NCBI GenBank assembly: GCA_050012475.1
Contig: JBEKHC010000102.1
Span: 1-17,084 of the forward strand
Reading direction: 5' to 3'
Length of the DNA: 17,084 nt
From: Candidatus Velthaea sp.
GTDB taxonomy: Bacteria > Vulcanimicrobiota > Vulcanimicrobiia > Vulcanimicrobiales > Vulcanimicrobiaceae
In this document: piece by piece, positions 1,152 through 7,941 of the stretch
Layout of the letters: each line of letters opens with the position of its first letter
Position numbering within the stretch: position 1 is the stretch's first letter
Made by a program: the position numbers and the translations under genes
The notes under the pieces: generated by a model
Told to the model about the DNA's origin: nothing
What the model saw: the letters and a program-made list of their open reading frames with translations, nothing else
The model's database searches: none

Positions 1152-2168
1152 ATGCCAATCGAGGAAGCCGTTCCAACGCTTCGATTTGAACAAGATGGAG
1201 AGGCGGCGCGCCACGAGATTGCCGCCTTGGTCGAGAGTTTGGCTCGCAGTAACCGTGAGAACCCCCGGCTGCGGGTGGTTATCGCCGGAGCGACGCTCTC
1301 GGCCGAAACGATCTCAACACTGATTACGGCGTTGCGCAAATTTCGCGAGCTGGGTGGCGCTATCGAGTTGCGGGGCGAGAGCGACGGCGTTCGGGCAGTC
1401 ATCGTGCTCAATGGTTTGGACCGCGTGTTCGCCTTTCCGCTGCTGCCGGAGGATGAAGCAAATCAGCCGCGCCGGCTGCCGCGCAAACGCAACGGGATCG
1501 GTCGGGCGGTACGGGCTGCCGCCGCGATGCTGGCGTTTCTCATCGGCTTGCCGGGTCTGGCTTCTCCGGCCCGTGCCGCTGTGGCCGACACCACCGATCC
1601 CAACGTGATCTTGGCACGGGTCATCGAACGCAACCCGAATCTTTCGTCGTATCAATCGCGGCTGCACGTCGATATTCGGCTAATCTCGTTTCCTTTCATC
1701 GGGCAGCATCTCGACGGCTCGACCTATTTCAAACGGCCGGCGAACTATGAGGTCGTGTTCGACCGGGTTCCCTCGTACGCCAAGGGTTTTGAAAAGCTTT
1801 ATAGCGACGTCGGCGATCCGTCGAACTGGGGTGGGCGATTTTATATCTCCTACGTTGGCGAACAGACGTTCGAGCAGCGCACCGATATCGTGCTGCACAT
1901 GGTGCAGCGCGTGCGTGGCATGATCGACCACGAAACGGTGATGATCGATCCGAACGCCTGGACCATCGATCAGATCCGTTACGATTATTACAACGGTGGC
2001 GTCATTACGATGACCCAGCATTTTACTGAGATCGGCGGCTACACGATGCTCAGCGCGCAAACCGCCGATATTAAAATACCGCACGTGCGCGCCGTAGCGA
2101 ACGGCACGTACACGGACTATCAGACGAACGTCGCGATCTCCGACGCCGTCTTCACGAAGAAGAATTAA
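1152..2168 (+). CDS. Fusion protein: N-terminal STAS-like domain, internal signal peptide, LolA-like (lipoprotein-sorting fold) domain
   Basis: aa ~49-93 LSAETISTLITALRKFRELGGAIELRGESDGVRAVIVLNGLDRVF follow the STAS pattern. aa 107-142 show basic n-region, hydrophobic h-region and ARA cleavage motif. The C-terminal domain has YFKRP and ends YQTNVAISDAVF, as in LolA-like proteins. Confidence 0.75.
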   Translation: MPIEEAVPTLRFEQDGEAARHEIAALVESLARSNRENPRLRVVIAGATLSAETISTLITALRKFRELGGAIELRGESDGVRAVIVLNGLDRVFAFPLLPEDEANQPRRLPRKRNGIGRAVRAAAAMLAFLIGLPGLASPARAAVADTTDPNVILARVIERNPNLSSYQSRLHVDIRLISFPFIGQHLDGSTYFKRPANYEVVFDRVPSYAKGFEKLYSDVGDPSNWGGRFYISYVGEQTFEQRTDIVLHMVQRVRGMIDHETVMIDPNAWTIDQIRYDYYNGGVITMTQHFTEIGGYTMLSAQTADIKIPHVRAVANGTYTDYQTNVAISDAVFTKKN

Positions 2169-2764
2169 TGCAGACAACGGCTCGCCCCGGCTCCTCCGCG
2201 GAAGATACCCGCGCGCGAATCCTCGCCGCGGCCAAAGCGATTTACGAGCAGAATGGTACTCGCGGCACCACGACACGCGAGGTTGCCGAGCGGGCCGGGG
2301 TGAACGAGGCGACGCTTTTCCGGCATTTTGGCAACAAGCACGCGCTGTTGCAGGCGATGCGCGAGAGCGCTTGCCCGCTGGCCGTCTTCGAGAGCGTGTT
2401 GGCCTCGCTCAGCGGTGATTTGGCCGCCAATTTGCGGACCATCGCGCAGTCGATGATCGAAACCATGCACGCCCGGCGTGCCCTCATGTGCATCTCGCTG
2501 GCGGAGGACGCCCAAGCCGAGAGCATGCCCGAGTGGCGCGGGCCGATGGAGATCATGCAGCGCTTGGAGGGCTTTTTCGCCGAGCAGATCCGCTTGGGGC
2601 AAATTCATGGGGACGCTCACCGACTAGCTGCCTATTTTATGGGGATGTGTTTCTCATACGTGATCGCGCGTAAGATTTGGGATTCGTACAGCATCAAAGA
2701 AGCCGATTTGGACTGTATGGTCGATATTTTCCTGAACGGAGTGAAAAGTGGAATCCCGTACTGA
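2168..2764 (+). CDS. TetR/AcrR family transcriptional regulator
   Basis: TRARILAAAKAIYEQNGTRGTTTREVAERAGVNEATLFRHFGNK helix-turn-helix. TAATG overlap with the upstream gene. Confidence 0.96.
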   Translation: MQTTARPGSSAEDTRARILAAAKAIYEQNGTRGTTTREVAERAGVNEATLFRHFGNKHALLQAMRESACPLAVFESVLASLSGDLAANLRTIAQSMIETMHARRALMCISLAEDAQAESMPEWRGPMEIMQRLEGFFAEQIRLGQIHGDAHRLAAYFMGMCFSYVIARKIWDSYSIKEADLDCMVDIFLNGVKSGIPY

Positions 2765-4145
2765 AGCACCGCCCAAGCCGGCCGGAGCGCCTGACGCTCG
2801 CGGCGCATCGGGCGCTCCGGTTGCTGAAGAGCCCTCCACGACGTCACGCCGGCGGCCCCCCGTCTGGCTGCTCGTCGTCATCGGCATCCTGGTCATCGCC
2901 GGTTTGATCTACGGCATCAAGTTCTTGATCTACGCGCTCGGTCACGAATCGACCGACGACGCGCGGGTCGATGCCGACACGGTGGCGATCACGAGCAAAA
3001 TCGGCGAGCGGGTCGACCGCGTTCTGGTGGACACCAACCAAGCCGTGACCAAGGGCCAAGTGCTGGTAGAGCTTGACGCCGTCGATGAGCGCTCGCGCTT
3101 GACGGCGGCGGTCGCCAATCGCCAGGCGCAACTCGCGCAGGCTCGCGCGGCACAAACGAACGTCGAGCTGACCACGGCGACCCAAGCGGCGCAGAATCAA
3201 CAAAACAGCGGTGAGATCGCGTCGGCCCAGGCGGCCATTCTCAACGCGTCCGCGTCGGCGACGTCGGCTCAAGAGCAGGTCGCCGCCGCCAAAGCCGCCG
3301 TAGCGCAGGCCCAAGCGCAGCTGCGGGTCGCGCAATCCAACGTCCCGAGCGCCCGTGAAGGGCTGGTGCGCGCGAACGCGGATCTCAACCGCACGACCGC
3401 GCTGGTCCGGACCGGCGACTTGGCGCAGCAGACGCTCGACGCCGATCGGGCGTTACAAGCCCAGGCGCAAGCGCAGTACCGTTCGGCGATCGACACCGTT
3501 TCCGCCGCGGAGACGGCGGTGACCCAGGCCCAGGCCCGCTATACGGCGGCCATCGCCAGCGCGAACGCAGCCGAAGCAGGCATCGGGTCGCAGCGCGGGC
3601 AGTTGACCACGGCGCAAGGCCGCTATGACGAGTCGAGCACGCCCTTCAAAATCGGCGCCGAAGAGGCGCAATACGCCGCCGCGCAGGCACAAGTGAAGTC
3701 GCTGGACGCGCAAGTCCGCACCGCGCAGGATCAACTCGGCTACACCGTCATTCGATCGCCCATCGACGGCTACGTCGGCGCCAAGAACATCGAGATCGGT
3801 GCCACCGTCGCGCCCGGGCAATCGCTGCTCGACATCGTCCCTCGCTACGGAACGTACATCACGGCCAATTACAAAGAAACGCAGCTGGGCAAGATCCGCG
3901 TCGGCCAAGACGTCGATATCAAAGTGGATGCTTACAAGGGCACGACGTTCCATGGCAAGGTCCAGACGATCGCCCCGGCTTCGCAAAATACATTCAGCCT
4001 CGTTCCGGCGCAAAATGCCACCGGCAACTTCGTCAAGGTGACGCAGCGACTGCCGATTCGCATCATCGTGACGGATCCGCCGGCCGCCATGCCGCTGCGC
4101 GTCGGCATGTCGGTCGAGACGTACGTGGATACCAAGTCACAATAA
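2748..4145 (+). CDS. emrA: EmrA/HlyD-family periplasmic adaptor (membrane fusion protein)
   Basis: N-terminal TM, ESTDDARV, long Ala/Gln coiled coil, and the PAQNATGNFVKVTQRLPIRI EmrA signature. GTG start after GGAG, overlapping the tetR end by 17 bp. Confidence 0.92.
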   Translation: MESRTEAPPKPAGAPDARGASGAPVAEEPSTTSRRRPPVWLLVVIGILVIAGLIYGIKFLIYALGHESTDDARVDADTVAITSKIGERVDRVLVDTNQAVTKGQVLVELDAVDERSRLTAAVANRQAQLAQARAAQTNVELTTATQAAQNQQNSGEIASAQAAILNASASATSAQEQVAAAKAAVAQAQAQLRVAQSNVPSAREGLVRANADLNRTTALVRTGDLAQQTLDADRALQAQAQAQYRSAIDTVSAAETAVTQAQARYTAAIASANAAEAGIGSQRGQLTTAQGRYDESSTPFKIGAEEAQYAAAQAQVKSLDAQVRTAQDQLGYTVIRSPIDGYVGAKNIEIGATVAPGQSLLDIVPRYGTYITANYKETQLGKIRVGQDVDIKVDAYKGTTFHGKVQTIAPASQNTFSLVPAQNATGNFVKVTQRLPIRIIVTDPPAAMPLRVGMSVETYVDTKSQ

Positions 4146-4188
4146 CGTTTGCGCGCGCCCCGGTCTGCGTCACCTAGAGGAGCACTGC

Positions 4189-6135
4189 GTGCATTCCCGA
4201 CTCCTTTGCCTTGCATTGAGTTCGATCGTCGTAGCGACGAGCGCCCAAGCCGCGAGCGCAAGACAACCACAACCGCAATCATCCTCCCCCGCCACGATGC
4301 GCTCGCCGTCTCCGGCGACGATGCAATCGGCGCCGCCGGGAACGCCCGGCGCCGCGCAGTCCGGTGCCGCGGGCTTGCCGCCGCCGCCGGTGCCGCCAGT
4401 GTTGCCGCCGGTGCCGAATGTCGCTCCCGGCTATTCGGCTCCCGCCAACGGTCCGCTGCCGACCGGCGCGCTCGTCGGCTTGAACGCCGAGCCGTTCGTC
4501 GGCATCGCGCTCGACGATGCCATTGGAATGGCGCTGGGCCGCAATACGGATCTTGCGATCGCGCAGTCGAATCAGCGCATCGCAAATTACCAAATCATCG
4601 CCGCGCGCGGTGCCTACGACGTCAAGTTTCAGCTTGCGCCGCAGTATCAGCATAGTTCGACGGCGGCGGTGAGTTCGTTTGAGTCCGGACCAGGCGGCGG
4701 ACCCGTCGTGCAGGACACGGCCGGCGCGACGGCCGGTTTCAACGGTGAGTTGCGCGGCGGACAGCATTACAGCATCAGCGCAAATCAGCAATACGTGAAC
4801 TCGAACGCGACGATCAACAGCTACAACCCGTTTTATACGACGGCGCTCAGCTTTAATTTCTCCCAACCGTTGGGCCGCGGCACCGGAACCAACGAAACCC
4901 GGCGCCAATTCGAGCTTTCGCTGGCGAACGCCCAAGCCAATCGCGCTCAGGCGCTCACGTCCGTCTCGCAGACGATCACCAATGTCTCGAACACGTATTG
5001 GAATCTCGTCGCGGCTTGGCGCAATGTCGGCATTCAAGAAGAAGGGCTGCGTCAAGCGCAAGCACAGGCGCAGTCCAATGCGCGGCTGGCCGCTCGCGGC
5101 GCGGTCGCGCCAGTTGACATCGTCGAATCGCAAACCCAAGTCAACGTTTTTCAAGACAACGTCTTCGCGGCGCTGGCGAACGTCCAGCGCTTGCAGACGC
5201 AGCTCAAGCAATTGATTTTGGCCAATCCGGGCGATCCGGTGTGGGTCGCCAACCTGGTGCCCACGTCGCCGGTCATCTCGCTGCCGGCCGAACCCGACCT
5301 CGATGCGCTGATCGTTTCGGCGCTCAAGAACCGGCCGGAAGTTGCGCAGCTGCGCGCCCAGCGCGATTCGGCAACGACGAACCTCGCCTATGCCAAGGAT
5401 CAACTCAAGCCCCAGGTCGATCTCAATCTCGGCTACGCATCCAACGGGTTTGCGGGTTTCTCGACCAATCCGACCGGAAATCCGATCTTTGCGCTCCTGG
5501 GTGAAGAAACTGCCGCAATCAACGAATTGCTTGCGCTCGCCGGCAATCCGCTGCCGGCGCTGCCGACCGGGTTCGGGACCAATCCGGCCTATCAAGTCGG
5601 CGGTTTGGGGCAGGCCTGGAAAAACACGCTCGACAATCGGTTTCCGACCTACACCATCGGGGTGACGTTTACGGTTCCGCTGGGCAATCGAACCGCCAAA
5701 GCGGAGTATCAAATTTCGCGCGAACAGGCCAAGCAAGTTGGCATCGAAGAGATCGCGCTGCTCGAACGGCTGCGGGCCGAAGCCGTCAATGCGATTCAGC
5801 AATTTCGCGAGACGCAATACCGTCTCGTCGCCGCAAGCCGCGCGCGCAGGGCGTCGGAGCGGGTGCTACTCGCCGAGCAGCGCCGCTTCAACGTCGGCAG
5901 TTCGACGACGTTCTTGGTGCTGCAGCGTCAGCTCGACGTCGCCAATAACCGCGGCCGCGAGTTACAAGCGCAGACCGACCTGAATAACGCGGTCGTCGAA
6001 CTCAACCGCGTCGGCGGCACGGTGTTCTCGACGTACCACATCGACGCGTCGGCGCTGGGAGCGCAAACGCTCGACGCGGCATCGCCGGACAAGACGCTGC
6101 TGCCCCCCGCATCTCCAACCGAGCCCAAGAAGTAA
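4189..6135 (+). CDS. TolC-family outer membrane efflux protein
   Basis: Signal peptide (SAQA), Pro-rich linker, and OEP motifs LDDAIGMALGRN, ALKNRPEV, LKPQVDL, EQRRFNVGSSTTFLVLQRQ. SD AGAGGAG before the GTG start. Confidence 0.93.
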   Translation: MHSRLLCLALSSIVVATSAQAASARQPQPQSSSPATMRSPSPATMQSAPPGTPGAAQSGAAGLPPPPVPPVLPPVPNVAPGYSAPANGPLPTGALVGLNAEPFVGIALDDAIGMALGRNTDLAIAQSNQRIANYQIIAARGAYDVKFQLAPQYQHSSTAAVSSFESGPGGGPVVQDTAGATAGFNGELRGGQHYSISANQQYVNSNATINSYNPFYTTALSFNFSQPLGRGTGTNETRRQFELSLANAQANRAQALTSVSQTITNVSNTYWNLVAAWRNVGIQEEGLRQAQAQAQSNARLAARGAVAPVDIVESQTQVNVFQDNVFAALANVQRLQTQLKQLILANPGDPVWVANLVPTSPVISLPAEPDLDALIVSALKNRPEVAQLRAQRDSATTNLAYAKDQLKPQVDLNLGYASNGFAGFSTNPTGNPIFALLGEETAAINELLALAGNPLPALPTGFGTNPAYQVGGLGQAWKNTLDNRFPTYTIGVTFTVPLGNRTAKAEYQISREQAKQVGIEEIALLERLRAEAVNAIQQFRETQYRLVAASRARRASERVLLAEQRRFNVGSSTTFLVLQRQLDVANNRGRELQAQTDLNNAVVELNRVGGTVFSTYHIDASALGAQTLDAASPDKTLLPPASPTEPKK

Positions 6136-7116: not shown

Positions 7117-7941
7117 TTATTTTATTTGGTGAACGTCCTCAGCGTTGAGCCGCAACCCACCGTTCTCGACGTCCAGAAGCCAGCGACCTTCGTCCACCGA
7201 CTGGGTGACGGTGCCGTTGTTTTCGCGATAGCGCGTGGTGATCCGAACGTTGACTGCATTTGCCGTATCGCCCGGCGTCGCCTCAACAGCGATGTGTTGC
7301 ACGAAGTCGTAGTATTTCACGTAGTCGGCAAAGGGGTTCTTGCGTTGCATTCTTTCCGACAGCATCCCGTACATCATTTGGAAATCGCGCTCGTTCGATA
7401 ACCGGTAATAGGTCTTGACGAAGTCGACGGCCGGAGTGAAAGCACTGGCCGATTCGGCTTGCAAGTCCGAACTAACCGCCGCGAACGAACCGGGAAGCGC
7501 CGTGGCGCTCCGGGACGTGTGCGAATAGGTCAGGATGACGATCGCCGCGATCGCGGTGACCACGAGTGGACGGATGGTCGACCGCGAGAGCGAACGCAAG
7601 AAGGCGCCCGGGCCATACTGATACCCGCACTTGGTGCAACGCTTGATCGGAGCCAGCAAACACAACAATCCAAGCGGAAAGAAGCACGAACAGATCAAGA
7701 TATGCGCCGGCGAGTATTTTATGGTAGAGTTGGCCTCGCCGCACTGCGGACAAACCGCGCCGCCGGCCGCGACATTGTGTGCCGGCTGGCGCGGTGCAGT
7801 CTGCGTCTGGGTCTGCTCGGACGGTGCGGCGGCTGGGGCGAGCGTTACGGTTGAGACCGTATTTGCGGTCGGCGTGAGTGTGCCGCAATACGCGCAAACG
7901 GCTCCGGAAAGTCCCGCGCCGCAGGCGCCGCAAGATGACAA
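7117..7941 (-). CDS. Membrane protein: zinc ribbon, BRI3/LITAF-like domain, TM helix, C-terminal NTF2-like domain
   Basis: CGACGAGLSGAVCAYCG; CPQC...YSPAHILICSCFFPLGLLCLLAPIKRCTKCG; TM PLVVTAIAAIVILTY; FVKTYYRLSNERDFQMMYGMLS helical start followed by beta strands. TTG start after GAGG. Confidence 0.75.
   Translation of the reverse strand: MSSCGACGAGLSGAVCAYCGTLTPTANTVSTVTLAPAAAPSEQTQTQTAPRQPAHNVAAGGAVCPQCGEANSTIKYSPAHILICSCFFPLGLLCLLAPIKRCTKCGYQYGPGAFLRSLSRSTIRPLVVTAIAAIVILTYSHTSRSATALPGSFAAVSSDLQAESASAFTPAVDFVKTYYRLSNERDFQMMYGMLSERMQRKNPFADYVKYYDFVQHIAVEATPGDTANAVNVRITTRYRENNGTVTQSVDEGRWLLDVENGGLRLNAEDVHQIK

Follow-up and report, generated by a model that had tools for sequence, protein, structure and literature searches.

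The analyzed stretch of DNA (17,084 nucleotides, hereafter the window) raises the question of whether one bacterial gene can truly join a STAS domain to a secreted LolA-like domain, and what becomes of its product. The gene lies at positions 1152–2168 bp of the forward strand and, according to the ORF list, is a single open frame encoding 338 aa. Modeling with AlphaFold2, based on 60 homologues, led to two confident domains separated by a low-confidence linker (aa 98–143). The protein consists of a STAS domain (aa 4–96), a signal-peptide-type linker and a LolA-superfamily domain (aa 146–338). Pfam and NCBIfam searches named neither domain in the window protein (STAS_2 was matched at E 0.11, below the cut-off); fused and split orthologues passed the Pfam STAS cut-off of 22.6 bits with scores of 33.6–48.6 bits.

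An earlier note, made from the letters of the window alone, proposed that the fusion is real, and this was borne out by homologues, genomes and read runs. The homologue search gave 601 matches, and 119 of the 120 evaluated among the matches listed covered 89–100% of the query, as expected if homologues keep the fusion. Named records among them belonged to Vulcanimicrobiota (Eremiobacterota), with Candidatus Velthaea being the closest. The order-wide search revealed a match at E ≤ 1e-50 in 220 of 251 genomes, a tally that takes in genomes marked as unpublished; outside such overall tallies, none of the conclusions draws on unpublished genomes. At least 53 genomes matched the whole profile without a stop (hand count of the matches listed), and the fused form was found in at least 52 Vulcanimicrobiota genomes of 20 genera, one unpublished genome being left out. 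In addition, contigs from two RNA and two DNA read runs crossed the junction between the STAS and carrier domains, and no indel was found within the gene in any of the four runs. Thus, the fusion is genuine. Errors of this kind do occur, and a relative (L107) has a frameshift within the carrier domain; however, the coverage of the homologues, the number of genomes and the indel-free runs refute an assembly artefact or a recent stop loss in the window genome, which retains practically no probability. An ESM Atlas record that starts at L26 was rejected as indicating the true start because the domain would then lack strand 1 together with half of helix 1, and homologues begin further upstream.

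Structure comparison revealed the STAS beta/alpha fold in the N-terminal part (1161–1439 bp, + strand), in agreement with the earlier note. When this part was folded alone, VIA-align matched it with TM1081 (Z 9.4, rmsd 3.4, 96 aligned residues), SpoIIAA (Z 8.8), RsbV (Z 8.5) and MlaB (Z 6.6), and STAS-containing entries made up all of the top 16 rows. The sequence of the domain is degenerate. STAS_2 was matched at E up to 0.1 by 27 of 60 homologues, the window protein being below the cut-off, and PDB sequences searched with a profile yielded STAS matches at E 1.1–1.3 only.

The DSTG motif of RsbV from the window genome aligns with S50-A51-E52-T53, the acceptor position being alanine (A51). The acceptor serine is therefore lost, as had been read previously from the tetrapeptide SAET. 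Ser or Thr occupies this position in 5/30 window-type, 13/22 other fused and 24/37 split sequences; the loss is a trait of the window sub-lineage and not of the fusion as such. The RsbV residues reported to contact RsbW are D23, Y53, S56, R84/R87 and I91 (PMC7340262). In the window STAS, S56 corresponds to A51, Y53 to T48 and R87 to A82, I91 is kept as L86, and the alignment of the D23 loop is ambiguous. No Arg or Lys was found at the R87 position in any of the 30 window-type sequences. Because the phosphorylatable serine and RsbW-contact residues have been lost, the domain probably does not have a canonical anti-anti-sigma role. At the same time, R62 and L89 are invariant (89/89 sequences), R65 is present in 88/89, and the end of helix 2 (L-R-x-x-R-E-x-G-G) matches RsbV of the rsbV-rsbW-sigB operon of the window genome. 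STAS is the fastest-evolving part of the protein (58–64% identity within the genus vs. 82–86% for the carrier domain), and its dN/dS was about 0.2 relative to congeners, with a median of 0.52 over 282 of 435 pairs (rough figures). Judged by its residues, it would be a conserved binding module that has departed from the kinase switch.

The operon of the window genome that encodes RsbV is of a canonical rsbV-rsbW-sigB type and is located on contig C83 (L151:650–2261). In two of 151 genomes searched, a window-type STAS carries a strong transmembrane helix at its C-terminus and lacks a periplasmic domain (L171:2652–3107 and L177:2483–2959, both on the minus strand); it is encoded near gatB. This is the form that an N-terminal cleavage product of the fusion protein would take.

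The C-terminal domain (1578–2165 bp, + strand) was assigned to the LolA3/DUF1329/TP0789-like branch of the LolA superfamily by structure matches and an ESM Atlas cluster, so the LolA-like domain suggested earlier was found as well. The best match was 3bk5 (Z 14.6, rmsd 3.7, 183 aligned residues), followed by the DUF1329 structure 4z48 (Z 14.0), LolA3 (9tp6, Z 13.0), NE2245 (Z 12.1) and canonical LolA (Z about 10). Foldseek also matched the domain with the superfamily (E 3e-11). The matches to 3bk5, 4z48, LolA3 and NE2245 extend over 180–184 residues at 8–14% identity. An Atlas cluster attributed to PF17131 matched the domain at 0.91, and Pfam gave no match for it, including canonical LolA (PF03548). 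The AlphaFold2 model and structure matches include the unclosed beta-barrel with a helical lid, and conserved aromatic and aliphatic residues are F180, W226, F230, M257, Y277, Y279 and Y280. The fold and the operon described below suggest that the domain is a putative periplasmic shuttle of lipophilic cargo for a pump. No canonical LolA was found in the window genome (94% complete). It does contain, in unrelated contexts, two secreted paralogues of the carrier domain that are not fused (C49:4097–4744, 35% identity; C30:11250–11879, 24%).

The two domains are connected by a Pro/acidic spacer with a basic n-region (aa 97–121; 1440–1514 bp, + strand), which does not contain an in-frame ATG, GTG or TTG, and by a hydrophobic h-region (aa 122–137) with the c-region S-P-A-R-A (aa 138–142; together 1515–1577 bp, + strand). 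A signal peptidase I cut is predicted after A142. The signal-like stretch spans R107–A142, and both P139 and A142 show a conservation of at least 90% across 60 homologues, which upholds the earlier reading of a Sec-type signal ending at aa 142. According to our own scores, all Sec/signal peptidase I features are present, namely a basic n-region, a moderate h-region, a helix breaker and A-x-A. The helix that follows the predicted site is simply helix 1 of the LolA fold and is also found in unfused copies. The window genome contains three signal peptidase I genes.

The linkers of 52 fused proteins were compared with the N-terminal signals of 37 split and 13 STAS-less orthologues using simple scores of our own; the p-values overstate the differences since the sequences are related and not independent. 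Fused, split and STAS-less sequences had best 12-residue Kyte–Doolittle values of 2.48, 2.55 and 2.51, respectively (p 0.45). The 19-residue insertion score was +2.28 in fused linkers vs. +2.78 (split) and +3.33 (STAS-less) in unfused ones (p 0.015), i.e., fused linkers are slightly more anchor-like. Both groups are far from all six EmrA anchors, which scored −0.3 to −3.5. A-x-A was found in 49/52 fused, 32/37 split and 10/13 STAS-less sequences. The c-region motif of a breaker plus A-x-A, which was chosen after the sequences had been viewed, is present in 48/52 fused linkers vs. a shuffle mean of 24, and none of 1000 shuffles reached 48. The n-region is more basic in fused linkers (3.1 vs. 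2.0 K/R). No lipobox cysteine was found in any of the 102 loci, which argues against a lipoprotein (signal peptidase II) signal, and no conserved twin-arginine motif of the Tat type was found, a loose RR pattern occurring in 14/52 fused linkers but not in that of the window protein. Thus, the internal linker is signal-like: its weak hydrophobicity equals that of the signals with which unfused orthologues begin and differs from that of true anchors. In RsiV, signal peptidase has been proven to act on an internal AXA that lies behind a cytoplasmic domain (PMC4183432), and the conserved AXA of that protein can stay shielded until the ligand binds (PMC6066255).

The fusion gene heads a transcribed TetR-EmrA-(EmrB)-TolC operon. 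Its stop codon overlaps the start of a TetR-family regulator gene (PF00440; 2168–2764 bp, TAATG), which is followed by genes for an EmrA-type periplasmic adaptor (2748–4145 bp; TIGR00998, E 1e-65, below the cut-off) and a TolC-type outer-membrane channel (PF02321; 4189–6135 bp), all on the plus strand and assigned by these profiles and synteny. TetR and EmrA genes were found downstream in 26 of the 31 loci examined (3 duplicates among the 31). In nine of the loci examined a 1.5-kb gene, missing in the window, lies between the EmrA and TolC genes; its product was identified as an EmrB-type MFS protein, with MFS_1 being confirmed in all four relatives tested. Contigs of two metatranscriptomes, both from one study, covered positions 1153–5936 at a depth of about 30–240, compared with about 0–7 in the flanks, and DNA runs covered 30/30 bins of the window stretch. 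Since contigs and runs were those found with the window stretch, the RNA cover indicates transcription only.

A sigma70-type promoter (TTGCAT-17-TATACT; 1080–1108 bp, + strand) precedes the gene, and its position is conserved across loci. It was absent from the list of a consensus scan because its −35 element matches only 3/6 positions. AGGA is located at 1135–1138 bp; its distance of 13 nt to the ATG of the fusion gene is long. The promoter and ribosome-binding site had been placed before the STAS part in the earlier note, correctly; the TetR-EmrA-TolC operon, the two operators and the existence of split and lost states of the locus were missed there. The promoter is flanked by two imperfect palindromes. 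Operator 1 (1071–1084 bp) is an imperfect palindrome with the consensus TGCAAGTACTTGCA that overlaps the −35 element and is conserved in fused, split and STAS-less loci, and operator 2 (1113–1126 bp) lies just downstream of the −10 element. With a loose pattern, a half-site or more was found in 100/102 loci, in all states. A genome scan gave 33 hits above 13 bits, where operator 2 was the top-scoring site and the only paired one. A wider regulon was therefore rejected, the window genome having no second operator pair among its single sites. The operator pair is probably bound by the TetR of the operon, which, as is general for the family, may repress its own synthesis.

Note that a gene for a class A beta-lactamase-like serine protein (PF13354; 250–1041 bp, − strand) diverges from the operon in the majority of loci and shares the operator region; its product contains the SxxK, SDN and KTG motifs and has no evident signal peptide. 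The window genome also contains a second EmrA-TolC pair (C152:1050–6822), 83% and 80% identical to that of the window. This pair lies behind an EmrB gene and a different divergent TetR gene and is preceded by the 3′ tail of the TetR gene of the window operon joined to a truncated oxidoreductase-like gene. It could be a recombined hybrid that supplies the EmrB missing from the window operon, contamination also being possible.

Comparison of 112 hand-picked loci revealed that 55 fused, 38 split and 19 STAS-less forms occupy one syntenic locus with the same operator–promoter region. Ten rows were dropped before statistics (3 duplicates, 1 frameshifted and 6 deletion derivatives or out-of-operon copies), which left 52, 37 and 13 loci, respectively. 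The carrier gene starts −4 to +7 nt from the STAS stop in all 37 split loci, with ATGA or GTGA overlaps in 19 of them; in 12 the two genes are in frame and one point change short of fusion. These arrangements suggest that the split STAS and secreted carrier genes are translationally coupled. Programmed read-through of the in-frame stop codon (TAG or TAA) that separates STAS from the signal in those 12 loci was rejected because each has its own start 0–3 nt past the stop.

In trees of the carrier domain (80 rows, LG+G4 without a mixture model; 37 loci, mostly near-duplicates, were left out), all 30 fused rows and six STAS-less rows formed one branch with no split rows. Its support was 95 (SH-aLRT) in the quick tree and 94/87 in the careful tree, short of the level at which branches were starred. 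The simplest history would be a secreted carrier in front of which a STAS gene was added, followed by one fusion; an orthologous operon from another taxonomic order (MarR-carrier-EmrA-EmrB) has no STAS. The split-to-fused direction is favoured, and fission from a fused ancestor is possible, because the deep split locus L109 is unplaced in the tree (58/11). STAS has been lost at least seven times on starred branches. In three cases a STAS-less copy that kept its signal groups as sister to fused copies (100/98, 100/100 and 97/94), and L049 has a visible internal deletion of STAS. Conversely, one genome (G013) carries STAS-TetR-EmrA without the carrier gene. Thus, the STAS and carrier modules do not depend on each other.

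In a sister family, fused copies (L047:2836–3921 and L048:3629–4717) lie outside the operon and have no operator, and one genome also has a STAS-deleted copy (L049:3919–4656); the fused copies were probably transferred as a unit. No relative was found in the viral contigs or plasmids searched for a mobile origin. Among the matches listed, none of 64 genomes outside the order gave a full STAS-plus-signal match. An ESM Atlas cluster of 344 aa (score 0.86), labelled mostly as Acidobacteriota and containing STAS_2 in 12% of its members, is possibly an analogous fusion in another phylum.

All these characteristics allow us to assume, with a probability of about 0.6, that signal peptidase I cuts the product as a precursor, which releases a lipid carrier into the periplasm to serve the pump and leaves a cytoplasmic STAS tethered to the membrane. 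This corresponds to the first option of the earlier note, a tethered STAS plus a released carrier, which is now supported. Its ancestor would have been a pair of coupled neighbours heading the TetR-repressed operon, one encoding STAS and the other a secreted LolA-fold protein, which became one frame while the Sec signal of the carrier was kept. One transcript, whose RNA cover was seen, would begin at the promoter at 1080–1108 bp, and translation would begin only at 1152 bp, as indicated indirectly by the lack of an internal start. STAS would fold in the cytoplasm, the internal signal would insert with its N-terminus inside, and Sec would export the C-terminal domain. Since the motif is retained, signal peptidase I may cut after A142 without a ligand. 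The freed domain, because of its fold and operon, could shuttle lipophilic cargo through the periplasm for the pump, as LprG does with Rv1410c. STAS would stay on the inner face of the inner membrane via the signal stub as a phosphorylation-independent binding module. The weakest step is its partner: even granting such a precursor, it is with somewhat less than even odds that we would name the cytoplasmic parts of the operon (TetR or the pump), RsbW being less likely. The absence of EmrB from the window operon speaks against a cut precursor.

An unlikely alternative is a one-component transmembrane sensor, intact or cut only when the LolA-fold pocket binds lipid, as in RsiV, with lipid binding changing the effect of the tethered STAS on TetR, the pump or the RsbW–SigB switch. 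The fused form is stable in 52 genomes of 20 genera, its linker has a more basic n-region and a slightly better insertion score, and the sensors RseB and MucB have the same fold (Foldseek E 1e-5). In addition, STAS with a true anchor in two genomes indicates that a tethered STAS is viable, and a helix also follows the site here, as in the RsiV precedent. However, the 37 split orthologues cannot signal in this way, each module has been lost without the other, the h-region is signal-like rather than anchor-like, and the post-site helix belongs to the fold even in unfused copies. Because of the split orthologues, a linker no more hydrophobic than unfused signals and the independent loss of the modules, the uncleaved sensor offered earlier as the second option is disfavoured, while the domains, the fusion and the serine loss of that interpretation stand. 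For the fused lineage, it is distinctly improbable that the carrier and STAS genes have become a one-component envelope sensor, in which lipid loading of the LolA-fold pocket gates the signal-peptidase cut and the non-phosphorylatable STAS, tethered or released, acts directly on TetR; if true, a STAS anti-repressor would couple periplasmic lipid load to efflux without a sigma factor or kinase.

It is also rather improbable that the precursor is cut but that only the carrier matters, the STAS stub being a tolerated passenger that is degraded or nearly idle. The repeated loss of STAS, its fast evolution and the erosion of its phosphorylation site and RsbW contacts would fit a passenger, but the near-invariance of R62, R65 and L89, the dN/dS values and the one locus that retains STAS without a carrier argue against it. 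It seems highly improbable that the carrier is translated from a start within the frame, or that ribosomes re-initiate close to the signal, either of which would make the fused frame incidental. Some in-frame ATG, GTG or TTG occurs in 22/52 fused linkers (ATG in 5/52), and GGAGG is located at 1447–1451 bp in the window; however, 30/52 linkers, that of the window included, contain none, an SD-like start was found in only 2/52, the ATG adjoining GGAGG is out of frame, and M126 lies inside the h-region.

The protein was compared with known systems. LprG–Rv1410c is a mycobacterial LolA-fold lipoprotein and MFS exporter encoded together (PMC10576003). LprG is among the fold matches of the carrier (E 2e-5), and in both cases a LolA-fold carrier accompanies a pump, EmrB-type MFS genes being present in operons of the relatives. 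Unlike this pair, the fusion has no lipobox (0/102), is encoded with tripartite EmrA-TolC components under TetR control and carries STAS, and EmrB is missing from the window operon. LolA3 is a protein of no known function that binds LolB only very weakly (PMC13103446). The entries seen for LolA3, 3bk5, NE2245, 4z48 and PF17131 have no N-terminal cytoplasmic domain, in contrast to the fusion. RsbV/SpoIIAA share the STAS fold, and the helix-2 end is that of the genome's RsbV, but the STAS of the fusion would be membrane-tethered, its acceptor serine and kinase contacts are replaced, and its neighbours are TetR, EmrA and TolC, with no anti-sigma kinase or sigma gene nearby. MlaB, the stand-alone STAS subunit of MlaFEDB from a lipid-transport operon, acts on its transporter, binds the ABC ATPase and keeps Thr52 (PMC7367683). 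The resemblance to the fusion would lie in STAS being encoded in a lipid-transport operon; however, it is a weaker structural match to the STAS part, and no ABC ATPase partner was seen in the examined loci. Thus, membership in the RsbV/SpoIIAA, MlaB, canonical LolA and lipoprotein classes fails on the tested features.

RsiV, an anti-sigma factor with ligand-gated signal-peptidase cleavage (PMC4183432, PMC6066255), has the same order of a cytoplasmic domain, a hydrophobic segment, an AXA site and an extracytoplasmic ligand-binding domain. Unlike RsiV, the fusion appears to have no cognate sigma factor, and it has split orthologues and halves that are lost independently. No conserved sigma gene was found near the loci, only one of which has a sigma gene nearby. 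Fusion of two neighbours with a retained signal peptide has a parallel in FbcH of Bradyrhizobium, a cytochrome b-c1 precursor in which the signal peptide of the second gene was kept and which is cut into two. The FbcH products are both membrane subunits of one complex, whereas the present fusion would give rise to a regulator in the cytoplasm and a soluble carrier in the periplasm.

Databases label members of the fusion as hypothetical or STAS-domain proteins. In the literature searched, which covered few subscription journals, no description of the architecture or the operon was found, judged from listings and abstract openings. Both the components and the principle are known; their combination appears to be undescribed. 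In bacteria it is rare for a gene to give rise to one cytoplasmic and one periplasmic protein via an internal signal-peptidase site, and in this family of soil and peat bacteria one gene probably yields proteins on both sides of the inner membrane. Split, fused, carrier-only and STAS-only states at one locus of one family form a natural series in which the origin of a transmembrane signalling architecture from two adjacent genes can be addressed. The operon suggests that a lipid carrier similar to LprG works with an EmrAB-TolC pump in diderm bacteria whose lineage yielded no canonical LolA. It also suggests a role of STAS beyond the partner switching of sigma factors.

Two further features of the window were observed. 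GC-rich palindromic repeats of 29–30 nt, which are REP-like, are located at 54–250 and 6142–6230 bp. Three identical copies follow tolC, and the beta-lactamase-like gene is followed by about five degenerate copies; the window genome contains 22 strict copies at 20 places. At 7117–10,327 bp, four genes of lower GC content, apparently missing from congeners, are inserted between pgl and opcA/zwf. From reading of their sequences, they encode a zinc-ribbon membrane protein, a DUF805-like protein, an SPFH-like protein and a small membrane protein.
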